Below are positions 14,661 to 49,043 of a stretch of DNA of 64,000 nt, in pieces. The notes under the pieces are model-generated. The model was not told the DNA's origin. It did no database searches and was given only the letters and a program-made list of their open reading frames with translations. Within the stretch, counting starts at the first letter, position 1, and each line of letters starts with the position of its first letter. This stretch comes from an uncultured Chitinophagaceae bacterium (GTDB lineage: Bacteria > Bacteroidota > Ignavibacteria > UBA10030 > UBA8401): contig CAYIXI010000001.1 of the NCBI GenBank assembly GCA_964367235.1, positions 14,878-78,877 on the forward strand, read 5' to 3'. The position numbers and the translations under genes are program-made.

Positions 14661-15737
14661 ATGCAAGTTGCACTCCTCTACAACCTGAAGAAAGAAAATT
14701 CTGAATTAAACGGAGCTAATTCAGAAACTTCAAGTCAAAAAACTTTTCAATCCTTAGAAACTCCACAAGAGACTCTCACGCGTATTGATACCTACGCAGA
14801 GTGGGATACTATTGAAACTATAAACGCACTTCGCGATGCCTTGGCAATTCGTCATGATGTTACTTTAATCGAAGCAGATGAATTTGCATTTGAAAAACTT
14901 CGTCTCTTAAAACCTGAAATTGTTTTTAATGTTACTGAAGGAAAATACGGCGCATCGCGTGAAGCACAAATTCCAGCAATGCTTGAAATGTTAGAAATTC
15001 CATACACGGGAAGCGACCCAGTTACTCTTGGAATTTGTTTGGACAAATCTCGCGCAAAAGAAATTCTCTCGTACTATAATATTGCAAATCCAAAATTTAA
15101 AGTTATCAAAGATTTAGAGGAAGAAATTCCAAACGATTTTAGTTTCCCATTAATAGTAAAACCTCTTTTTGAGGGCTCAAGTAAAGGGATTTTTAACAAA
15201 TCGGTTGTTGAAAATATGAACGAATTAACTGAAATCGTAAAAGAAATAATTTCGGAATACAAAGAGCCAGCGTTGATTGAAGAATTTCTTCCGGGAAGAG
15301 AATTTACTGTTGCGATTTTAGGAAATAAAGATAGAGCAAGAATTTTACCAATCGTTGAAATTAAATTTGATGCTTTGCCAAAAGATGTCAAACCAATTTA
15401 TTCGTACGAAGCAAAATGGATTTGGGACCAATCCGAATTTCCACATGATATTTATGAATGTCCCGCGCAAGTTTCAAATGAGCTGAATCAAAAAATAAAA
15501 AACATTTGTTTGAGTACTTATCATACACTTGGTTGCAGAGATTGGGCGAGAGTTGATGTAAGACTTGATGCAAGTGGTGAACCACAAATAATTGAAATTA
15601 ATCCACTTCCAGGAATTTTACCAAAGGCTGAAGATAATTCTTGTTATCCACGAGCGGCGAGAATCGCTGGCTATACTTATAATGAAATGATTAACGCTGT
15701 GCTTGACGAAGCATGTTTGAGAAACGGACTACTATGA
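14661..15737 (+). CDS. D-Ala-D-Ala-ligase-family ATP-grasp ligase, paralog 1
   Basis: Ddl-like three-domain layout; ATP-grasp motifs (PLIVKP ... GSSKGI ... EEFLPGREFTV ... RVDVRLD ... IEINPLPG). Confidence 0.7.
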   Translation: MQVALLYNLKKENSELNGANSETSSQKTFQSLETPQETLTRIDTYAEWDTIETINALRDALAIRHDVTLIEADEFAFEKLRLLKPEIVFNVTEGKYGASREAQIPAMLEMLEIPYTGSDPVTLGICLDKSRAKEILSYYNIANPKFKVIKDLEEEIPNDFSFPLIVKPLFEGSSKGIFNKSVVENMNELTEIVKEIISEYKEPALIEEFLPGREFTVAILGNKDRARILPIVEIKFDALPKDVKPIYSYEAKWIWDQSEFPHDIYECPAQVSNELNQKIKNICLSTYHTLGCRDWARVDVRLDASGEPQIIEINPLPGILPKAEDNSCYPRAARIAGYTYNEMINAVLDEACLRNGLL

Positions 15738-16816
15738 AAAAAAGAATTGCAATAATATATAACGAACCAACAATCTCAACTGAAAATGGAAAAGAATTTA
15801 TTTCTCAAACATCTTTCAATAATAATTTAGATTTTAATTCTGTATCAAATCTTTCTGCAAAATTAATTGACATGTCCGAAGTTGGAGTGCTCGAAGAGAA
15901 AGAAGACATTCAGCGAGTTTTGGAAAAATATAATTACGAAGCTGTAATTTTTAATGTTTCGGAAAACATAAAAGAGTTAATTCAGTTTATTGAAAATGAA
16001 AAGATAGATTTAATTTTTAATTTAGTTGAAGGGCTTGGAGAGGAATCGATTCACGAAATGCATATTGCCGGAATTTACGATTTGCTCGGAAAAAATTATA
16101 CCGGTTCCGCCGCTCGTACACTTGGCATCTGCCTTGATAAAGCAAGAACAAAAGAAATTCTTTCTCATCATAAAATTTTAACTCCAAATTTTACAACTTT
16201 ATATTACGGCGAAAATTTTACAAAAGCTCAAATTAATTTAAAATATCCATTGTTCGTAAAATTTAGAGAGCAAGATGCAAGTTTGGGAATCGACAATAAT
16301 TCTCTCGTAACAACATTTAAGGAATTAAAAGACAAAGTTTTAGATTTATGGTCGCAACATCAAGGTTCTATTATAATAGAAGAGTACATCGATGGACGCG
16401 AATTAAACATCGCGGTTATTGGAAATGAAAAACCAATTGCGATGCCAATTTCTGAAATTAGTTTTGACACTTTGCCAAAAAATTACCCCAAAATTGTTTC
16501 GTACAATTCAAAATGGATGAAAGGCACCGTGGAATATGACCATACAGTTGGCATCTGTCCTGCTGATTTGCCAAAAAATTTAACCACCGAAATGCAAAAA
16601 ATTGCAGTTGAGGCTTTTAAAATTCTTGGCTTGCGAGATTATTCGCGTGTTGATTTTCGTTTGGACGAAAATAATATCCCGTATGTTTTGGAAGTAAATC
16701 CAAATCCGGATATTACTGATGATGCTGGCTTTGCTCGTTCGGCAAAAGCCGCAGGTTACTCTTACGAAGAAATTGTTGCAAAAATTATTGAGATGGCTTT
16801 AAATCGTTCCAAGTAA
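15734..16816 (+). CDS. D-Ala-D-Ala-ligase-family ATP-grasp ligase, paralog 2
   Basis: Same architecture as paralog 1 (about 30-35% identity by eye). ATG 15734 forms an ATGA overlap with the stop of paralog 1; the track start 15713 is in frame but overlaps. Confidence 0.7.
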   Translation: MKKRIAIIYNEPTISTENGKEFISQTSFNNNLDFNSVSNLSAKLIDMSEVGVLEEKEDIQRVLEKYNYEAVIFNVSENIKELIQFIENEKIDLIFNLVEGLGEESIHEMHIAGIYDLLGKNYTGSAARTLGICLDKARTKEILSHHKILTPNFTTLYYGENFTKAQINLKYPLFVKFREQDASLGIDNNSLVTTFKELKDKVLDLWSQHQGSIIIEEYIDGRELNIAVIGNEKPIAMPISEISFDTLPKNYPKIVSYNSKWMKGTVEYDHTVGICPADLPKNLTTEMQKIAVEAFKILGLRDYSRVDFRLDENNIPYVLEVNPNPDITDDAGFARSAKAAGYSYEEIVAKIIEMALNRSK

Positions 16817-22281: not shown

Positions 22282-23724
22282 TTGAAGATGAAAAATTTAT
22301 TTACAAAAGCAATAGTAATAGTTTTGATTTTTAATTTCATTGCATCTGCAACAATTTGGGATTCGATGGAAATGGCAAGCGCAAAACTTTATTTTAAACA
22401 AAAAAACTATCCAAAAGCGTTGGAATTTTTAAAAGCAGAAGTCTCAAAAAATCCGACGAGCGAAGATGGTTGGTTTTACATGGTTTTGGTTTATCACGAA
22501 CTTGGAGAAATCAAAAATTTAAAAGATGCATTCGATCACGCCGTAGTTTTAAATCCTAAAAAAGCAAAAGATTTAAACCAAATGCGAATTGTAGAATGGG
22601 CAAAATTATTTAACAAAGGTGTTGAAGATTTAAATAACGCAGTTGATTCGATTGGATTGGCAAAAGCAATTGAAAGTTTTGAATTGACTTGCTATGTAAT
22701 GCCTGAGTCGACTTTGAATTTTAGAAATCTTGCGCTTACATATTATAGAATGGGCGATTACGAAAATGCGATTCCAAATTTAATTATTGGTTCGGATAAT
22801 GGTAAAGATAATATGTCGGTTAAATTGATTGGAGATATTTATTTGGAGAAAGCGACAAATTTTAAAGAACAGTTTAATAATATCAACCAAGAAAATTTTG
22901 AGAAGATAAAAAATTTAGATATGATTCGTGAGAAAATTAAAAGTGCTGATGTTAAATATTATCTCGGACAACCAACTTCGATAAACAAGCCAAAAGGAAA
23001 AAAGAAAATCGAGGAGTGGAGTTATAGCAAGTACAATTTAAATTTAACTATTGAAGATGGAATCGTAACAGTTGTAAATAATCAATACAAGCCACAAATT
23101 GATTCGTCAAATTTGTATTTAGCGTTGGAATATTATGCTAAAGCTATTTCCATTTTACAAAAAGGAATTGAAACTTTTCCAAACGATGCAAAAATTTCTG
23201 AAACATTGATGAACAGCTTTATCGGCGCAGAAAGAAATGATGAAGCACGCTCGCTGTTGGAAACAAGAATTCAAAAATATCCCGATAGCAAATTTGATCA
23301 TTACAATCTCGGTGTATTTTTATTAAAGGAAAATAAATTTGAACAAGCAATTGCTTCTTTTGAAACATCTCTAAAACTCGATACAGCAATGAGTGCTGCG
23401 CGTTATAATCTTGCGGCGTCTTATGTCAACTGGGGAGTGAAGGAACAGGAACGAATCAAAAAAGAAGAACAAATTAGAGAAGAAGAAGAACTAAAATCAG
23501 ATAAAAAAAATAAAAATGCAAAAAAAGAAAAAAGAGAAATTGATAAATCGTATTTGGAAAAATATAAACTTGCTCTTCCTTATTTAGAAACTATTGTAAA
23601 AGATAAACCAGATGAAGTCCCAATGTGGGAATTGCTCGGACAAGTTTATGCAAATTTAAATGATATGAAAAAAGCGGACGAAGCGTATAAAAAAGCTGAC
23701 TTGATTCGCGAAGGGAAAAAATAA
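22282..23724 (+). CDS. Secreted TPR-repeat protein with K/E-rich low-complexity segment
   Basis: Signal peptide, multiple TPR-like repeats, KKEEQIREEEELKSDKKNKNAKKEK stretch; AAGGAGA RBS 8 nt upstream. Confidence 0.5.
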   Translation: MKMKNLFTKAIVIVLIFNFIASATIWDSMEMASAKLYFKQKNYPKALEFLKAEVSKNPTSEDGWFYMVLVYHELGEIKNLKDAFDHAVVLNPKKAKDLNQMRIVEWAKLFNKGVEDLNNAVDSIGLAKAIESFELTCYVMPESTLNFRNLALTYYRMGDYENAIPNLIIGSDNGKDNMSVKLIGDIYLEKATNFKEQFNNINQENFEKIKNLDMIREKIKSADVKYYLGQPTSINKPKGKKKIEEWSYSKYNLNLTIEDGIVTVVNNQYKPQIDSSNLYLALEYYAKAISILQKGIETFPNDAKISETLMNSFIGAERNDEARSLLETRIQKYPDSKFDHYNLGVFLLKENKFEQAIASFETSLKLDTAMSAARYNLAASYVNWGVKEQERIKKEEQIREEEELKSDKKNKNAKKEKREIDKSYLEKYKLALPYLETIVKDKPDEVPMWELLGQVYANLNDMKKADEAYKKADLIREGKK

Positions 23725-23734
23725 AAAGGAAAAC

Positions 23735-24058
23735 ATGTCACAACAACCACCACAACAAATAAATATAGAATTGGGCGAAAAAGAAGCCGAAGGAATTTAT
23801 TCGAACCTTGCAATCATTACTCACTCGCCAGCCGAGTTTGTAATTGATTTCACACGGATTTTGCCCGGTGTGCCGAAATCGAAAGTTTTTGCCAGAATAA
23901 TTATGACGCCACAGCATGCAAAATTATTATTGAATGCACTTGGCGATAATATTGAAAAATTTGAATCTAAATTTGGAGCGATTAATTTAGTTCAAGATGA
24001 AAAAATGCCACAAAATTTTGGATTCCAAATTACACAAAAAGATGAGAAAGTACATTAA
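23735..24058 (+). CDS. DUF3467-family small protein
   Basis: IELGEKEAEGIYSNLAIITHSPAEFVIDF ... MTPQHAKLL matches my recollection of DUF3467. Confidence 0.55.
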   Translation: MSQQPPQQINIELGEKEAEGIYSNLAIITHSPAEFVIDFTRILPGVPKSKVFARIIMTPQHAKLLLNALGDNIEKFESKFGAINLVQDEKMPQNFGFQITQKDEKVH

Positions 24059-24119
24059 TAATTTTTTTATAATAAAATTTTTAAAACATAAATGGAGTAA
24101 ATATTTTTCATTTGAAAAA

Positions 24120-26321
24120 ATGATTTTTGTTTTGTTCCCTTTTTTTATTTTTGGTTGCGTAAAAATTCTGACACCAAAACTTCCATCTTGGCAAACACAA
24201 CTTACAATTCCGCTGGTAGATAGAACTTTCACACTTGAAGATTTTATGAAAAAATCCTCCAGTCTTTTTATTGATTCAACAAATGGTGAAATCTCCTATA
24301 GGCCAGCAGAAATTCAAAACAAACCCGACACAATTAAGTTACCTTCATTTTCGCCTCAACCATCAAGAGTATCACAGGTTATAGGTCCATTACCGTGGCC
24401 AAATATAAATTTACCTCCATCAATCTCATCTTTTAAAAATATAACTGGGCAAGATCCTCCTGTTATTCCTTTTCCTGGAGCAGATATAATAGGAATTTTT
24501 ACTAAAGATGTTAATTTAGATATTTCTGGTCAATTAGATGTTTTTGATTTTGGAACTTTTGAAGATGGAAGTTTGGAAATAACTTTTATAAATACTTTTG
24601 CTTTTGGATTTAATTTTACAAACGGAATTGCAATAAGAAATAGAGATGATAACTCATTAGTTGCACAATATCCAGCATTTATTTTAGCGGCTGGTGAAAC
24701 AAAAAAAATGAGCGTAGTTGTAACTGGTAAAACCTTAAAAGATCAAATTAGCATTTCGGGTAATTTTCAAACGCAAAATATAACCGGTAAAATAATTACA
24801 TCATTAAATACAATTGCAATTTCAACACAAATTACTGGAAGTAGTGGAACAGGAAACGCTTCTTTATCGGAAGCAAAAATTTTATTTGTTGGTAATATTG
24901 ATCTTGTAAATCTTCCAAACGAATCGGATCAAATTTTAGATGACTCAACTTATTATAAAACCTTAGAGTTCAGTAAAGGTGGATTTGATATTAGAGTAGT
25001 TAATGGTACAAATTTTGGTGTTAAAGTTGTTTTCGAAATTAAAGAATTTATAAATAAATCTAGTAGTCAGCCATTTTTTATTAGTGGTACTTCAAAAGAG
25101 GCAACGATAAGTAAAAACGCCACTTTTTTGCGTGAAGTTCTTTTAGTCGATTATAAACTTCAAAGCCAGGAACTAAACAATGCGCCAACAAATAAAATTA
25201 ATTTTAATTTAAAAATACAAACTCTTATTCCGAGTTTTGTTGATAAAATTTTAGTTCGTAAAACAGATTCTGTTGTTGCTGAGATTGTACCAAAAAAAGA
25301 TAATCTTGGAAGTACAATTCCGTACAAACTACATAAAGTGCTTGGTAAAATAACACCTATTACAATAGCTATTGATCAAACTATGCCACTGGCAACTGGA
25401 GATTTTAAAACAAAATTTAAAGCCGATAGTATTATGTTTGATTCGCTTTATTTGGCTTATAAACTTTTTACTTCAGGTCTTTTTCCGACAGACATTTCTT
25501 TGAAAATTTACGCAATAAATAGTAATGGTATTAGGGGTGATTCGTTAACTTTGCCAACAAATTTTGTAATTCCAATTTCAGGTAAACAAGTTAGGAGAAT
25601 TTTACCTGGACAAATTGATTCAATTGTTTTTAATAAAAATAACAGTACGCTTGATAGATTTATATCATCATTTATTTCAAATGGGCAAGGGTTTTTCCCG
25701 GACTCAATTAGAATAAAAGGAACTGTAGAAATTAACCCGATTGATGTTTATAAAGACCCAAATTCTTTTGGCGGAGCGACTGACGGAGATACTGTTGTTA
25801 CTTCAGTTAGGTTTGCGTTTCCAATGAGGATAGGAATTAAAAATGGAACTTTGCGCGATACAACTATAATTGGTGATACAACAGCAAGCGGTACAGGTTC
25901 AAATAAAATTGATAAAGAAAGTTTATCAAATATTGTGCAAGGAAAAATTTTCTTCAGTATTGAAAATACATTTCCATTTCAAATTCAAATTAAAGCTGGC
26001 TTGTACGATAAAAGTAAAGATAATTTTTCAATACCCGATACTATAGCACTAATGTATTTACCGATGAATAAAGATACGATTTTAGTTGATAGTGCAAGAT
26101 ATAGTCAATCGCCTGTTCGCCCCGGAAAATCTTACACAGCATTTGCTTTAACTCCCGCAGATGTTGATAAATTTAATCCAGCTACTTTTATGACTCTTGC
26201 AATAAATATTCGCACTTCTGGCAATGGAGATAAAGCGGTTATTTTCAGAAAAGATAATTACCTGCATATCAAATCTTTTGCAAGTGTAACTTTTAATGTA
26301 GATTTCAATAAAAAGAAATAA
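24120..26321 (+). CDS. Large predicted lipoprotein (about 733 aa, beta-rich, no recognisable family)
   Basis: The track ORF starts at 23997 and overlaps DUF3467. The in-frame ATG at 24120 gives MIFVLFPFFIFGC with a lipobox-like FGC. The stop TAA directly abuts the ATG of the next gene. Confidence 0.45.
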   Translation: MIFVLFPFFIFGCVKILTPKLPSWQTQLTIPLVDRTFTLEDFMKKSSSLFIDSTNGEISYRPAEIQNKPDTIKLPSFSPQPSRVSQVIGPLPWPNINLPPSISSFKNITGQDPPVIPFPGADIIGIFTKDVNLDISGQLDVFDFGTFEDGSLEITFINTFAFGFNFTNGIAIRNRDDNSLVAQYPAFILAAGETKKMSVVVTGKTLKDQISISGNFQTQNITGKIITSLNTIAISTQITGSSGTGNASLSEAKILFVGNIDLVNLPNESDQILDDSTYYKTLEFSKGGFDIRVVNGTNFGVKVVFEIKEFINKSSSQPFFISGTSKEATISKNATFLREVLLVDYKLQSQELNNAPTNKINFNLKIQTLIPSFVDKILVRKTDSVVAEIVPKKDNLGSTIPYKLHKVLGKITPITIAIDQTMPLATGDFKTKFKADSIMFDSLYLAYKLFTSGLFPTDISLKIYAINSNGIRGDSLTLPTNFVIPISGKQVRRILPGQIDSIVFNKNNSTLDRFISSFISNGQGFFPDSIRIKGTVEINPIDVYKDPNSFGGATDGDTVVTSVRFAFPMRIGIKNGTLRDTTIIGDTTASGTGSNKIDKESLSNIVQGKIFFSIENTFPFQIQIKAGLYDKSKDNFSIPDTIALMYLPMNKDTILVDSARYSQSPVRPGKSYTAFALTPADVDKFNPATFMTLAINIRTSGNGDKAVIFRKDNYLHIKSFASVTFNVDFNKKK

Positions 26322-27767
26322 ATGAATCGTTCACTAAAAATTTTTATTTTTATTTTTATTTTTCAAAATATTTCTTTTGGAAACGAAAGAACATCGGCAC
26401 GCGGAATTGGAATGGCGCGAACTTTTGTAGTTACTTCTCGTGGTGTTGATGCGCTTGGAATAAATCCTGCAAATCTTTCTTACCTCGATAGAGGAAGTTA
26501 TACGACTATGTCGTTGTTGCCAATTGGCGTACGAGCTGGAAGTGATTTTATAAATTTTAAAGTCTACAACGATTATTTTACTGGCGACCCCGATAGTTTA
26601 GATAAAGATGGAAATAGAATTATTGGACGACGACTTGATGCAAATGATAAAGATGGAATTTTTAATCTTTTTCCAAGTGGAATTGCGCACACTCAATCTG
26701 ATTTTGACGCAATGCTTTTAGGATTTACTTCTATCGGTGGAAATTATGCAATTGGTTTTTCTGTTACCGAAAGATTTTCTGCTGGGCTTGATCTTCCCGA
26801 AGGATATTTAAAAATTCTTTTAAATGGATTTGAGGAAAAAGGCTCGGAACATACATTAAATAATACTAATTATGGCGTTAGATGGATGAGAGAATATAAT
26901 TATTCGTTCGCTTATCATTTTGCGAAAAATGTTAGTTTGTGGAAATTCCGAGACATCAGCGTTGGTATAAGTTACAAACCCGTGCAAGGATTTTATTACG
27001 CAGGCACCGATCATTATAATGGATCGCTTCAAAATAAAATTTATTACAATAAAGATAGTGTAAATTGGATTGACTCAATACAAATTATTGGAAATATAGA
27101 TTATGCGCAATTTCAATCTTCAATTCCAATTGATTCAATTTCGCAATTTCTTTTTAAACCTGCTGGAAAAGGAACAGGATTTGATATTGGTGTATCGGCA
27201 AAAATTATATCTGGTTGGCAATTTGGAATGAGTATTACAGATATTGGTTCGATACTTTGGTCGAAATCTCCAAAATATTCTTACGGAAAAGGAAATTTTA
27301 CAATTTCAGATTTGGGTAAAGCCGGACAACTTGATTCGCTCAAAAATAATTTTAAAGGAAAAACAATCGACACAACTTCTTTTAAAAGAAATTTGCCAAC
27401 AATAATTCATCTTGGCGCTGCAATTCAACTTGATGAATCTCCTTATGTGAATAGAAAAACTTTTGCAGGAAAATTATTATTAGAAGGAAATATTCATATT
27501 GGTTTAAATGATGAACCAGGCAATACAACACTACCTCGTTTTTCAGTTGGTGCAGAATATGTAATTCCTTCCCGTTGGGTTGATTGGTTGAGGATTAGAA
27601 GTGGGATGATGTTTGGTGGAAGAGAATTATTTTCGTGGTCTTTGGGAATTGGAATTGTAAATCCAGTTTTCGATTTTGATATTGGAACTGAAAGTATTGC
27701 ATTAATTATAACTCCAAATAGTTTCAGAAATGGTTCAGTCTCGATGGGTTTAAAAATCAGGATGTAG
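26322..27767 (+). CDS. FadL/TodX/PorV-like outer-membrane beta-barrel protein
   Basis: Signal peptide then SARGIGMARTFVVTSRGVDALGINPANL, the FadL-family hatch N-terminus (SxxGxGxA ... NPA); beta-strand-rich; C-terminal aromatic residues. Confidence 0.55.
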   Translation: MNRSLKIFIFIFIFQNISFGNERTSARGIGMARTFVVTSRGVDALGINPANLSYLDRGSYTTMSLLPIGVRAGSDFINFKVYNDYFTGDPDSLDKDGNRIIGRRLDANDKDGIFNLFPSGIAHTQSDFDAMLLGFTSIGGNYAIGFSVTERFSAGLDLPEGYLKILLNGFEEKGSEHTLNNTNYGVRWMREYNYSFAYHFAKNVSLWKFRDISVGISYKPVQGFYYAGTDHYNGSLQNKIYYNKDSVNWIDSIQIIGNIDYAQFQSSIPIDSISQFLFKPAGKGTGFDIGVSAKIISGWQFGMSITDIGSILWSKSPKYSYGKGNFTISDLGKAGQLDSLKNNFKGKTIDTTSFKRNLPTIIHLGAAIQLDESPYVNRKTFAGKLLLEGNIHIGLNDEPGNTTLPRFSVGAEYVIPSRWVDWLRIRSGMMFGGRELFSWSLGIGIVNPVFDFDIGTESIALIITPNSFRNGSVSMGLKIRM

Positions 27768-27772
27768 ATTTG

Positions 27773-27806
27773 TCTGCCTCTGGCAGATTAATCCGCCAGA
27801 GGCAGA
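27773..27806 (+). terminator. Hairpin terminator between convergent OMP gene and rpoN
   Basis: Perfect 12-bp stem TCTGCCTCTGGC / GCCAGAGGCAGA, 10-nt loop, then TTTATATTTTT. Confidence 0.65.
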
Positions 27807-27807
27807 T

Positions 27808-29217
27808 TTATATTTTTCTTCTTAATCGCGCAACAGGAATTTTTAACTTCTCACGATATTTCGCAACAGTTCTTCGAGCAATTTCAATCCCCTTATTTTT
27901 TAAAATTTGCCTGAGTTCGTCATCATTCAAAGGATTATTAGGATCCTCAGAATTTATATGTTGTTGCAAAATATTTTTCACTTCTTTGTTTGAAACATCT
28001 TCACCGTTATCAGTCGAAATTCTCTCACTAAAAAAATATCGAAGTGGAAAAATTCCAAAATCGGTTTGAACATATTTATTGTGAATAGCACGGCTGATTG
28101 TAGATTTATCTTTACGAATTATTTTTGAAATATCGTTGTAAACCAAAGGATGAATTTCGCCGCCGTTTAAAAAGAAATTATTTTGTTTTTCAACAATTGT
28201 CCCCATAATTTGCAACATCGTTTCTTGCCTTTGTTTAATAGCCATTATAAAGTTTTTTGCCGATTCTATTTTGCTTCTGATAAAATCCTTCGCCTCTTTG
28301 TTTGGTTTTTTTTGGTCGAGCAAAATATTTTTGTATTTCTGATTTACGCGAAGCGGCGGAATGTTTCGATTATTTAAATTTATAATTAATTCACCATCGT
28401 TATTTTGTATATAAAAATCTGGAACGATATAAATATTTTCATCAGAAATTTTACCTTCACCCGGTTTTGGATTTAAATGTGAAATCAAAGTTATTGCTTC
28501 TTTGATTTTTTGCATTGTGACATTTAATTTTTTCGCAATAACTTCGTAGTGTTTTTTTGAAAAATTATCATATTCCCGTTCAATTATATCTCTTGCAATT
28601 TTGATAATTGATTGATTCGCCTTGCTAAACTCCAATTGTACTAATAAACATTCTTTTAAATCTCTTGCACCAATCGCAATTGGTTCGGATCTCTGAATAT
28701 GAAATAAAACTTTCTCAGCTTCAGAAAACGAAACAGTAATTGAGTTTCGAAGTGTAATATCATTGATAATCAAAATCAAATCGCGTCGAAGATATCCATC
28801 ATCATCAATATTGCCAAGGACTTCACTTGCAATCAATAATTCTTTTTCAGTTAGATTTGAAAATTCCAATTGGGCATAAATTTGGTCAAGGAAAGAAATA
28901 TTTTCAATTTTTGGTGCTTCCCAATATTCACTTTGCGAGTTGGTTATTTTTTTCTCTCTGTATTCTGTCTCTTCCTGTTCGATTAAATCTTCAACTGTTA
29001 AATTATTTTCATTTTTTTCTTTTAAAGAATTATCAATCGGCTCGTTATCATCAGATTTTGTAGAAACTTCTTCGAGCAAAGGATTTAATTCTAACTCGTT
29101 TTTAAGATGGTCTTCAAGTTGAAGAATAGGCAAGTGCAACATCCATAAATATTGGATTTGAAGCGGAGAAAGTTTTTGTAATAATTTTTGCTCTTGAGCT
29201 AATTTATAATCGGACAT
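27808..29217 (-). CDS. rpoN: RNA polymerase sigma-54 factor
   Basis: C-terminal RpoN box ARRTVAKYRE, HTH region, N-terminal Q/L-rich activator-interaction region; 469 aa. Confidence 0.9.
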   Translation of the reverse strand: MSDYKLAQEQKLLQKLSPLQIQYLWMLHLPILQLEDHLKNELELNPLLEEVSTKSDDNEPIDNSLKEKNENNLTVEDLIEQEETEYREKKITNSQSEYWEAPKIENISFLDQIYAQLEFSNLTEKELLIASEVLGNIDDDGYLRRDLILIINDITLRNSITVSFSEAEKVLFHIQRSEPIAIGARDLKECLLVQLEFSKANQSIIKIARDIIEREYDNFSKKHYEVIAKKLNVTMQKIKEAITLISHLNPKPGEGKISDENIYIVPDFYIQNNDGELIINLNNRNIPPLRVNQKYKNILLDQKKPNKEAKDFIRSKIESAKNFIMAIKQRQETMLQIMGTIVEKQNNFFLNGGEIHPLVYNDISKIIRKDKSTISRAIHNKYVQTDFGIFPLRYFFSERISTDNGEDVSNKEVKNILQQHINSEDPNNPLNDDELRQILKNKGIEIARRTVAKYREKLKIPVARLRRKI

Positions 29218-41416: not shown

Positions 41417-42538
41417 TTAAATAAAGAAGTGAAAAACTAATTGATATTCATTGTTTTCGATTTGAGTTGTTGGCTCTAAATTAATTCTATAAAGATTTAA
41501 AATTTCTACACCGCTTACCGGATAAACGCTAAAGCCAATTGAATGGCGAGTATATTTAATTTCCTTTGCGCCACCATGTAAAATATTACTTGGAGATAAT
41601 TGAATTTCTGAAGAGATGTGGTCTTCCATAGTTTTAGTTTCAAAAGAATATCTTAAATCAAATCCGGTTGTAACTTGATAATGCATTGAAAGATTATTTA
41701 TATCTTTAAAGTCGTCAAAAAATCCGAGATTAGTTTTTAAATTTACAAATTCATACATCAAAGTAAAATTTTTATCAATCGTAAATCCACCGAAATAATT
41801 TTTTACAATTCTTTTATTTGCAAATTCAGGCATAAGATAATACGAGCCACCCAACATAAAATTTAAAAATGAAAAAGAATTTTGATATTCAGTTCTTAAA
41901 ATTACGGCTTTAGATTTTTTCGGAGGAAAACCCAATCCGCCGGGATTGCCATTGAAAATACCAGCAGTGATTAAAAAATCATCAGGCGCAAAACCAATTT
42001 CCAAACCTGCATCTTCGCTTCTTTCACCAAAACCAATTTCGCTTCGTGTCCAAGTATTGTGGTCATCAGTTTTAATTCCAAAAGATGGAGTGAATTGACC
42101 AACTTTCAAAAATCCTTTTGCAGGTAAATTTTTTGCAAGCGCAAATAATTCAAAACCATCGCGCAATCCTTTATCAAAATATAAACGAACAACTTTATTA
42201 ATTTTTAAATCAAAATATAAATCGCCTTGCATTTGAAAAAATTGTGATTTTTTATTTTCAGAATTTTGATAAAATAAAGTACGAGCATCAAAACCAATCG
42301 TAAAAAAATCGTTTAATTTCGGGGTGAATTCTTCGAATTCAGTTTCAGCGCGAAACATTTGCAAGGGCAATTCATCCTGCGAAAACGAAACGCCGAAAGA
42401 ATTCCGCATTCCTTTTCCGGTGGGATTGATGTGGCACGATTGGCACGATGCGCCCGAACGAAGCGAAAAAAGTGGAAGCGCAAAAAGAGAATTTGAATTT
42501 AAAACAATTAATAGTGCAAAAATAATTTTTCGATTCAT
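41417..42538 (-). CDS. Secreted monoheme CXXCH + beta-barrel protein (Cyc2-like fused cytochrome-porin candidate)
   Basis: Signal peptide MNRKIIFALLIVLNSNSLFA, then CQSCH 13 residues into the mature protein. About 340 aa of alternating-hydrophobic beta-strand-like sequence ending in aromatic ...HFFI. Confidence 0.45.
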   Translation of the reverse strand: MNRKIIFALLIVLNSNSLFALPLFSLRSGASCQSCHINPTGKGMRNSFGVSFSQDELPLQMFRAETEFEEFTPKLNDFFTIGFDARTLFYQNSENKKSQFFQMQGDLYFDLKINKVVRLYFDKGLRDGFELFALAKNLPAKGFLKVGQFTPSFGIKTDDHNTWTRSEIGFGERSEDAGLEIGFAPDDFLITAGIFNGNPGGLGFPPKKSKAVILRTEYQNSFSFLNFMLGGSYYLMPEFANKRIVKNYFGGFTIDKNFTLMYEFVNLKTNLGFFDDFKDINNLSMHYQVTTGFDLRYSFETKTMEDHISSEIQLSPSNILHGGAKEIKYTRHSIGFSVYPVSGVEILNLYRINLEPTTQIENNEYQLVFHFFI

Positions 42539-47818: not shown

Positions 47819-47961
47819 TTATTTTTTATGAAAATGTTCTACAATAACCTCTTTAACTAATTGTACATCATCGGTAATCAGTCCATCGATATTTAATTTT
47901 AATAATCGCTCAACATCTTTTTTTGAAGTGATGCCATAAACATAAACTGCAATTTTATTTT
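47819..47961 (-). pseudogene. Relic 3' end (last 45 codons + stop) of a glycerophosphodiester phosphodiesterase paralog
   Basis: 134 nt (47828-47961) about 88% identical to 49129-49262, the 3' end of the intact GDPD gene. Translates to IAVYVYGITSKKDVERLLKLNIDGLITDDVQLVKEVIVEHFHKK*. Confidence 0.7.
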
Positions 47962-49043
47962 ACCAACATCATCTTACCTGTTTTTACATTCTTATTATTT
48001 AGCAATCTGTAAAAATATGAACCACTTGGTAAATTCTCTGCTTCAAAATTAATTGAATGTTTTCCTCTTTTTTGTTTTTCATCGACCAAATTTGCAACTT
48101 CTTTTCCAAGTATATTAAATACTTTTAAAGAGACTTTTGAATCCTCATTTAATTCGTAAGAAATTTTTGTTTGAGGATTAAATGGATTTGGAAAATTTTG
48201 ATGTAAAAGAAAACTTTTCGCATTGTTGATATTTGAGAAGTTGACATTTGTCGAAGTTTCATTGGACAATTTTTCGATGTAATAAGTATAAACTTTTCCT
48301 GAATCATTTATCCATGACCGTGTTGGTTCTGCTAATAAAAACATCCCATTTTTTGTAAAAAATTCTATTCTACTTCTTTTATCTATATAAGTTTCAGTTG
48401 GAGTAATAACACTATCAATCATTATTGAATAAACTCTTAAACATGGATAGGAGTTTTGACCAATCTTAATTGTTCCGAATGCATCACATTTTGATGTGCT
48501 ATACTTTGTAAATCTATATCCATTACCTGGATCATCAGATACAATATTATATTCAGTATGAGTAAAACCTAATGCTAACGGTAGTTTATAAAATAATAAT
48601 TGATTTTCTATTTTTCCTTCATAACTACTCTCATTATTTTCGAGATTCTCAAATAAATAAAACCGACCTATTAATTTTACACCCTCAGGTTGAAAGTCTA
48701 AATAAATCTCTGCAAATATTGAATTTGAATCTTCAGTAAAAAAATTTGTTTTAGCAACTACTTTAGCATCAAGATAAAAAGAATTTGCAAAACCAGTGGA
48801 AGGATTATCCAATTGATATTTAATTGAGTCATTAAATATTAAAGATGGCATAACCCAGTTTTGGGAAACCGTATTTGATGGATATCCAATATCAAACTAA
48901 ATTGAATCTTCATTGTAAACATAATCATTTAATGACTTACCAACTTCAAACAATTTTTTCATATCATCAAGAGTAACAGTAATTTGGGCTTTTAATGGGA
49001 TGAAAAAAAGGAAATAGATTATTGAAAAATAAATTTTACTCAT
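47955..49043 (-). pseudogene. T9SS C-terminal-sorting-domain cargo protein interrupted by a single in-frame TAG
   Basis: Start ATG 49043-49041 with GGAGG SD and signal peptide MSKIYFSIIYFLFFIPLKAQ. Same frame as the track ORF 47955-48851, separated only by TAG at 48897-48899. The C-terminus ...LPSGSYFYRLLNNKNVKTGKMMLVK is a T9SS type-A CTD. Confidence 0.55.

Follow-up and report, generated by a model that had tools for sequence, protein, structure and literature searches.

A conserved gene pair of a large lipoprotein and a DUF5723 barrel in Ignavibacteria and their relatives, a possible BamG/BamH-like complex of the outer membrane

What does a bacterium do with a large lipoprotein of no named family, when the gene for it runs directly into the gene of an outer-membrane barrel? 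This question is raised by a stretch of 64,000 nucleotides (nt) from an uncultured Chitinophagaceae bacterium (GTDB class Ignavibacteria; contig CAYIXI010000001.1, positions 14,878 to 78,877 of the forward strand), in the following called the window. An earlier reading of this DNA from its letters alone (the sequence-only reading) described three co-directional genes for a DUF3467 protein, a lipoprotein, here named LIPO, and a barrel of the FadL/PorV type. It suggested that lipoprotein and barrel might take up hydrophobic substrates or form an attachment complex associated with the secretion system of type IX (T9SS). The open reading frames (ORFs) lie where that reading had placed them (Table 1). 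Our analysis argues for a unit of two genes and points, tentatively, to a complex built like BamG-BamH of the machinery for beta-barrel assembly (BAM).

We scanned species-representative genomes with a profile of the barrel. This resulted in 124 relatives, and 80 loci were kept, all from Ignavibacteria-like metagenome-assembled genomes (MAGs). All counts of neighbouring genes refer to 81 sources, the 80 related loci and the window. Of these, 72 have a LIPO homologue upstream of the barrel according to phmmer. A hidden Markov model of the family placed LIPO directly upstream of the barrel in all loci with upstream sequence (78/78), and in the three sources without a LIPO match the barrel lies at the contig edge. 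The two genes are thus co-conserved wherever this could be tested. In the window the TAA of LIPO (26319–26321) abuts the ATG of the barrel at 26322, just as the sequence-only reading had described. The LIPO-barrel junctions also comprise 27 overlaps of four nt and nine overlaps of one nt. Junctions of this kind are typical of translational coupling and suggest it for this pair.

The pairing persists beside relatives of LIPO that share only 18% identity and stem from other environments. In a MAG of the Schleiferiaceae (Flavobacteriales), a LIPO-like lipoprotein of 1632 amino acids (aa) precedes a DUF5723 barrel of 521 aa (L086:8001-14476, JAOHDH010000002.1). In the 1132 aa protein P0184 from a Joint Genome Institute (JGI) metagenome, one ORF spans both LIPO (residues 28–705) and the DUF5723 barrel (residues 729–1103); it represents either a real fusion or the loss of the stop codon at an abutting junction. 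Seven loci form a high-GC clade (L051, L052, L057, L059, L060, L068, L077), with barrels that are 74–89% identical to one another. In this clade the pair is found in a different neighbourhood, without the DUF3467 gene and without the tetratricopeptide repeat (TPR) gene that precedes it in the window. L051 and L052 originate from a single MAG; since their identity is 81%, the two may represent paralogues or strain variants and are only a candidate case of true paralogy within one genome. Apparent frameshifts split or truncate the LIPO gene of L039 (4923–6831) and the barrel gene of L024 (7001–8427); they may be assembly errors or mark pseudogenes.

The third gene of the proposed trio behaves differently. 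Its assignment to DUF3467 was correct (PF11950, 100.7 bits versus a cut-off of 25, E 4.6e-29), and it is found in 54 of the 81 sources, the window counted. It is absent beside the distant LIPO-barrel pairs and the protein has no signal peptide, and for these two reasons we consider it a syntenic neighbour and rejected it as a member of the module. The TPR gene, located upstream in 53 of the 81 sources (again with the window), is likewise missing where the pair is distantly related or has moved to another place. Since LIPO and the barrel also occur without both genes, the TPR gene and DUF3467 are placed outside the module, as neighbours specific for certain lineages. Judged by gene order, the functional unit is two genes and not three, so that only the LIPO-barrel part of the co-directional trio stands.

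The barrel belongs to DUF5723 (88.4 bits versus a cut-off of 26.8, E 1e-24), a domain that is carried by all of the at least 120 homologues listed. An AlphaFold2 (AF2) model calculated from 94 sequences reached a predicted local distance difference test score (pLDDT) of 90.2 and a predicted template modelling score (pTM) of 0.86. When this model was compared to the PDB by Foldseek, the top matches were the toluene channel TbuX (2.2e-10) and chain B of the BAM complex from F. johnsoniae (9n2d_B, 2e-9). TodX and FadL (probability 1.00), 9hiv_F, PorV (6h3i_F, 8gl6_F) and 9hjm_F followed in this order, with 9hiv_F and 9hjm_F being chain F of the BAM complexes of B. thetaiotaomicron and P. gingivalis, respectively. 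We read the matched BAM chains as BamG, since no other subunit with a FadL fold is described for these complexes. All template modelling scores (TM-scores) were about 0.4–0.45, which places the barrel in the FadL superfamily and does not choose a subfamily. The FadL/PorV fold proposed from the sequence is therefore borne out by the model. At the level of sequence, no match to Toluene_X (PF03349) was obtained at E<=1, and when the barrel profile was aligned to E. coli FadL by hhalign, the probability was 1.5%. When PDB sequences were searched with profiles of the barrel and of LIPO, and also with two distant barrels of DUF5723, no BamG, BamH, FadL or PorV chain was revealed. The PorV/PorQ model NF033709 scored 23.7 bits versus a cut-off of 90 and matched only residues 23–67 of the barrel.

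The most conserved stretch of the barrel is the mature N-terminus (residues 31–60). The barrel N-terminus reads SARGIGMARTF...GINPANL, and N48-P49-A50 are conserved to 100/100/99% in 94 homologues. The spacing of G-x-G and NPA is that of E. coli FadL, which supports the FadL-type hatch recognised by the sequence-only reading. Ahead of G-x-G, the mature barrel has 7 residues versus 11 in FadL. Strands 2–7 of the model are long, with 16–19 residues (121–139, 142–159, 183–200, 210–242, 250–267), and according to the model should project beyond the membrane. The DSSP string of the model contains 16–17 strand segments, compared to the 14 transmembrane strands of the FadL family. A Brachyspira DUF5723 model was reported to be 16-stranded.

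For LIPO, three candidate start codons are present, ATG 23997, ATG 24042 and ATG 24120. A database protein with an NCBI locus tag (P0001, 759 aa) is 100% identical to LIPO and matches ATG 24042. The hydrophobic stretch with the lipobox (MIFVLFPFFIFG/C, the slash standing in front of the Cys) begins at ATG 24120. Whether LIPO overlaps the end of DUF3467, as had been claimed, depends on the start: the overlap is 62 nt for ATG 23997 and 17 nt for ATG 24042, and for ATG 24120 there is none and a gap of 61 nt instead. In the relatives this gap mostly measures tens to hundreds of nt, two loci are near-abutting (6 nt), and no overlap occurs.

Scans of the window protein and 30 relatives revealed no Pfam or NCBIfam family, and the statement that the lipoprotein has no recognisable family holds. 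Word-indexed protein searches found only 3 proteins from the single query and 5 from a profile of 31 sequences, and an exhaustive profile search was therefore needed. Among 1.84e9 representatives it detected 1771 clusters at E<=1e-3 and 338 at E<=1e-30. Most family members have a length of 670–760 aa, some of about 980 aa and some of more than 1300 aa. LIPO has a signal peptide that ends in a lipobox Cys, as expected for a bacterial lipoprotein, and this Cys, preceded by a hydrophobic stretch, aligns in all but two of 119 family members (117 of 119). From the Cys onwards the consensus reads C-x3-P-x2-P-V-A-P-x-W-D-x-Q-L-S-I-P-L, an N-terminal block that ranks with the most conserved segments of the protein. 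The residue at position −1 of the Cys is often Q, N, H or E (SFN/C, SWQ/C, GFQ/C, GFE/C) and not the usual G, A or S. Several orthologues of the upstream TPR protein also have a lipobox Cys, and the atypical −1 residue is common to them and to the LIPO relatives (window 24120–24158; L040, L055, L061, L063 and others); it may represent a lipoprotein signal specific for this lineage.

The AF2 model of LIPO (119 sequences; pLDDT 91, pTM 0.74) shows an all-beta chain of sandwich domains. Its fold matches were beta-sandwiches only, with no BamH, SusD or PorU chain among the matches listed. With no family match and only such folds, assignments of LIPO to SusD, PorU or BamH were rejected. Neither a peptidase C25 nor a propeller domain nor a Por_Secre_tail was found in the Pfam/NCBIfam scans and the AF2 model. 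The C-terminal half may resemble DUF4621 (PF15414); the Pfam model itself had no match to LIPO. DUF4621 proteins have about 330 aa and include an uncharacterised secreted protein of Bacteroidales (BDI_1231, PDB 4h3w), and the N-terminal half of LIPO is not covered by this family. In the literature that we searched, DUF5723 and DUF4621 hardly appear.

Natural variants give an idea of which parts of LIPO are needed. In three species LIPO comprises only 238–261 aa (L055:6198-6983, L061:6252-6968, L063:6264-6983). Tblastn revealed in-frame internal deletions: the short proteins match only profile positions of about 2–94 and 557–680, corresponding to residues of about 2–87 and 602–729 of the window protein (about 90 N-terminal and 125 C-terminal residues). 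The barrel downstream is intact in all three. In P0157, P0163 and P0236 (1311–1632 aa), which are relatives from marine Flavobacteriales, a module of 135 aa (profile positions 124–260) is repeated 5–8 times in tandem, and in the forms of about 980 aa a second module is duplicated. Because deletions keep the ends and other members amplify the middle, we consider the ends indispensable and the middle an extension of variable reach. The two ends probably form one base domain, and a middle part of variable length is typical of proteins that project from the cell surface.

A known complex with similar features is part of BAM in Bacteroidota, which includes BamG and BamH (Liu et al. 2025, PMC12611786; Silale et al. 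2025, PMC12578637). The FadL-fold barrel BamG is essential and binds to the back of the BamA barrel. BamH is a lipoprotein of the cell surface; its N-terminus, conserved and lipidated, wedges into BamG, where it touches the likewise conserved N-terminus of BamG (PMC12611786, PMC12578637). Strands 3–7 of BamG form a pillar for BamH (PMC12611786). Outside the class Bacteroidia, bamH and bamG are neighbouring genes, as listed for Chitinophaga, Salinibacter, Fibrobacter, Gemmatimonas, Caldithrix and Ignavibacterium album (PMC12611786, Supplementary Table 1), with IALB_1454 listed as BamH and IALB_1455 as BamG of I. album; no detection method is stated for these homologue assignments (PMC12611786). 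In B. thetaiotaomicron, BamG2 and BamH2 form an operon.

The resemblance to LIPO and its barrel concerns several features. Both systems combine a FadL-fold barrel with a cognate lipoprotein, and the order of the genes in I. album is the same as that of LIPO and the barrel, a comparison that refers to gene order and not to sequence. BamG and BamH are encoded by adjacent genes in many lineages of the Fibrobacterota-Chlorobiota-Bacteroidota (FCB) group, to which the lineage of the window also belongs. The pattern of conservation matches as well: the N-terminal tail ranks top in the barrel, and the tail following the Cys is among the most conserved parts of LIPO. The long strands 2–7 of the DUF5723 barrel are comparable to the BamG pillar.

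We therefore favour, with a probability of roughly 0.45, a two-protein outer-membrane complex in which the FadL-fold barrel docks the lipoprotein by its lipidated tail and base domain. LIPO and the barrel would be expressed from a translationally coupled operon of two genes and, by this coupling, be made together. LIPO would be exported as a lipoprotein, and its lipidated, Pro-rich tail and the base domain of N- and C-terminal ends would dock on the barrel, which would mainly serve as a dedicated dock in the membrane. The middle of LIPO, a variable chain of beta-sandwiches, would project from the cell. Since a conserved housekeeping neighbourhood was seen in every relative examined, the pair is read as a constitutive component of the envelope. 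The leading specific candidate for its role would be an extracellular canopy of BAM, ahead of a substrate-specific channel for catabolic uptake. New in comparison to BamG-BamH would be that the same building plan is realised by two other protein families. We place more confidence in the pairing, and less in surface exposure and in an association with BAM.

A number of observations weigh against such a complex. The families differ: the barrel belongs to DUF5723 and BamG to Toluene_X, for which the barrel gave no match even at E<=1, and BamH belongs to DUF4270 (PF14092), for which LIPO showed no match at E<=1 and 30 further members none at E<=0.1. The family profiles also matched no BamG or BamH chain among the PDB sequences, and LIPO is unlike the solved BamH, as no BamH chain was among its listed fold matches. 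The N-terminus of BamG is about 10 residues longer than that of FadL and runs through the lateral opening, and the barrel has no such extension (7 versus 11 residues, a mere proxy by length). LIPO is bigger than BamH (733 versus about 540 aa), and its length is widely variable, with a span of about 240 to 1690 aa that one would not expect in a machine whose geometry is fixed. In P. gingivalis the DUF5723 protein Q7MT24 appears to be separate from BamG (PG_0448), as far as the order of UniProt accessions indicates, and the solved seven-subunit BAM complex of this species was not described as including a DUF5723 protein. Flavobacteriales carry a LIPO-like/DUF5723 pair, although canonical BamG and BamH were reported to be universal there. 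Finally, the window LIPO reads C-VKILTP, and the six residues that follow its Cys, where Bacteroides has the acidic signal for surface export, include no acidic one, and at least two acidic residues after the Cys are present in only 44 of 117 relatives; this rule was derived from Bacteroides and may not suit the lineage.

Next in probability, and in our view rather unlikely, is an uptake system, with the barrel as a FadL-type channel for hydrophobic or amphipathic molecules that leave through a lateral opening, and LIPO as a surface capture protein, comparable to SusD or to the surface glycan-binding proteins that serve SusC. The barrel shares with FadL, TodX and TbuX the overall fold, the N-terminal hatch and a similarly spaced G-x-G...NPA motif, and Foldseek scored these channels best, with TbuX leading. 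The NPA of the hatch is conserved throughout, and PDB entries exist for the FadL mutants N33A, P34A and delta-NPA. This motif may, however, not be specific for transporters, because the G-x-G...NPA region is also the sole part that weakly matches the PorV/PorQ model. The DUF5723 barrel differs from the three channels by the missing Toluene_X match, perhaps by 16 instead of 14 strands, and by its obligatory lipoprotein partner. It also differs by a housekeeping and not catabolic context: neither catabolic nor regulatory genes lie alongside the pair, which is embedded in conserved housekeeping synteny. Some species have cut LIPO to a stub of 240 aa and yet keep the barrel. Uptake of hydrophobic substrates, as considered in the sequence-only reading, is therefore possible and not favoured by this context. 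F. johnsoniae FadL (Fjoh_4941), a canonical homologue, likewise has an adjoining lipoprotein gene (Fjoh_4940), and both neighbours respond to TamL depletion (PMC12045153). Pairs of a lipoprotein and a FadL-fold barrel may be a general theme in this group of bacteria.

Still less probable is a self-contained system for export and anchoring, in which a laterally opening barrel moves its own lipoprotein to the surface and holds it there, independently of BAM and T9SS and similar to Slam and TbpB. The strict linkage of one barrel to one lipoprotein over deep divergence is in line with this view, as are the lateral opening of the FadL fold and the fact that only the ends of LIPO are indispensable. 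For the Slam-dependent surface lipoproteins of Neisseria, the barrel gene likewise adjoins the gene of the lipoprotein that it serves, and the upstream TPR protein shows a weak, sub-threshold match to the TPR domain of Slam (E 0.0011). That match is generic, however, and the TPR protein is encoded by a separate and dispensable gene that distant copies lack. The barrel family of Slam (DUF560) is unrelated, with no link by sequence or fold, and a hatched barrel of FadL size is small for translocation of a folded chain of 700 aa. With the same low probability we regard the idea that LIPO and DUF5723 constitute an unrecognised, widespread barrel-lipoprotein system, in which the barrel would export its own lipoprotein and keep it at the cell surface, reaching from Ignavibacteria to marine Flavobacteriales and distinct from BamG-BamH and T9SS.

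The minus strand of the window (47955–48851) encodes a protein of 298 aa that carries Por_Secre_tail (E 1e-11), the C-terminal sorting domain of the T9SS; the organism consequently has a T9SS with at least one cargo gene. PorV and PorQ are also FadL-like barrels that bind surface proteins. The least probable reading, and a very improbable one, has the barrel as a T9SS shuttle or attachment site like PorV/PorQ and LIPO as its cargo or as a partner like PorU/PorZ: PorV (6h3i_F, 8gl6_F) is among the fold matches, the hatch region weakly resembles the PorV/PorQ family, a cargo gene exists, and in P. gingivalis the UniProt accession of the DUF5723 protein stands beside Q7MT25, a T9SS protein with the C-terminal domain, which hints that the two genes are neighbours, but LIPO has a lipobox Cys in place of a C-terminal sorting domain and neither peptidase C25 nor propeller domain, the 23.7 bits are far under the family cut-off, PorV ranks below the FadL-type channels and BAM chain B, and no T9SS component adjoins the pair in any locus.

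Table 1. Coordinates of the gene pair, its parts and its neighbours in the window.
Feature	Coordinates	Strand	Remarks
TPR-repeat protein with signal peptide	22282..23724	+	conserved upstream neighbour, outside core pair
DUF3467 small protein without signal peptide	23735..24058	+	PF11950
LIPO, large lipoprotein of an unnamed family	24042..26321	+	759 aa (ATG 24042) or 733 aa (ATG 24120)
LIPO, lipobox Cys (codon TGC 24156-24158), Pro-rich tail and first strands (residues 13-87)	24156..24380	+	conserved N-terminal anchor region
LIPO, beta-sandwich module (residues 117-260), tandemly amplified in longer members	24468..24899	+	profile repeats
LIPO, C-terminal half with possible likeness to DUF4621 (residues 402-702)	25323..26225	+	
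LIPO, C-terminal domain (residues 602-729), kept with the N-terminal region in short variants	25923..26306	+	
DUF5723 outer-membrane beta-barrel, FadL-superfamily fold, 481 aa	26322..27767	+	PF18990
Barrel, N-terminal hatch/tail of the mature protein (residues 21-60), NPA at 26463-26471	26382..26501	+	conservation
Perfect 12-bp GC-rich hairpin	27773..27806	.	between convergent barrel and rpoN genes
rpoN, convergent, context	27808..29217	-	ORF

The window is AT-rich (about 32% GC) and contains the housekeeping genes smc, lpxB, lpxK, queA, recG, two ddl-like genes, dnaG, icd, rpoN, dprA, glmM, fusA and uvrA; no catabolic genes adjoin the pair there. The gene order icd-HIT-TPR-DUF3467-LIPO-barrel-(hslVU)-rpoN is kept down to 30% barrel identity. 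Downstream of the pair, an rpoN homologue occurs in the window and in 50 related loci (51 of 81 sources) and is mostly convergent. In relatives hslVU usually sits between barrel and rpoN, and the window lacks it. Many of the 50 related loci with rpoN have a gap of about 2 kb at this position (compare for example L001 and L040), which is filled by hslU and hslV in loci with listed ORFs; about a dozen related loci have a short gap as in the window. For the TPR protein, Pfam matches were to generic TPR only. Identification of it as BamD was rejected on this basis, and the BamD of I. album is IALB_3077 according to Liu et al. Elsewhere in the window, the two D-Ala-D-Ala-ligase-like genes of the ATP-grasp type are arranged in tandem (14661–15737 and 15713–16816, plus strand) with an overlap of 25 nt. 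An ORF of 373 aa between fusA and a heptosyltransferase gene (41417–42538, minus strand) has no Pfam family at E<=1e-5.

The sequence-only reading had the module end at a perfect 12-bp hairpin that faces rpoN, and this structure is clearly present. Its arms are TCTGCCTCTGGC (27773–27784) and GCCAGAGGCAGA (27795–27806), and it occupies the 40-nt gap (27768–27807) that separates the stop codons of the convergent barrel and rpoN genes. A folding energy of −28.8 kcal/mol was calculated (z = −6.97), and none of 200 shuffled sequences was equally stable. On the plus strand the hairpin is followed by the T-rich run TTTATATTTTT, so that a stable GC-rich hairpin and a T-run, the hallmarks of an intrinsic terminator, are both present. 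From its sequence, the hairpin is probably a bidirectional terminator. A terminator consensus scan with a loop limit of 3–8 nt did not report it, probably because the loop of 10 nt exceeds this limit.

In Bacteroidota and their relatives, barrels in complex with surface lipoproteins are a defining trait of the outer membrane, and the BAM structures of 2025 revealed that a FadL-fold barrel can be a dock for a lipoprotein rather than a channel. One of the partner families described here comprises about 1800 sequence clusters and has no name. If IALB_1454 and IALB_1455 belong to the LIPO and DUF5723 families, the pair has already been counted as BamH and BamG by homology, and the new point is the different fold of the canopy lipoprotein; if they do not, it forms a module of its own. 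If the pair represents the BamG-BamH of Ignavibacteria, an unrelated lipoprotein fold would have been used to rebuild the extracellular canopy of BAM; otherwise the pair would be a separate, widespread and unstudied module of the envelope. To our knowledge, no surface-lipoprotein flippase is known yet in the FCB group, and if an export or display system should prove true, the pair would be a candidate route for surface lipoproteins in this group. Ignavibacterium album and Melioribacter roseus are cultivable relatives of the window organism, and the natural variants with deletions or amplifications already give an indication of the parts of LIPO that matter.

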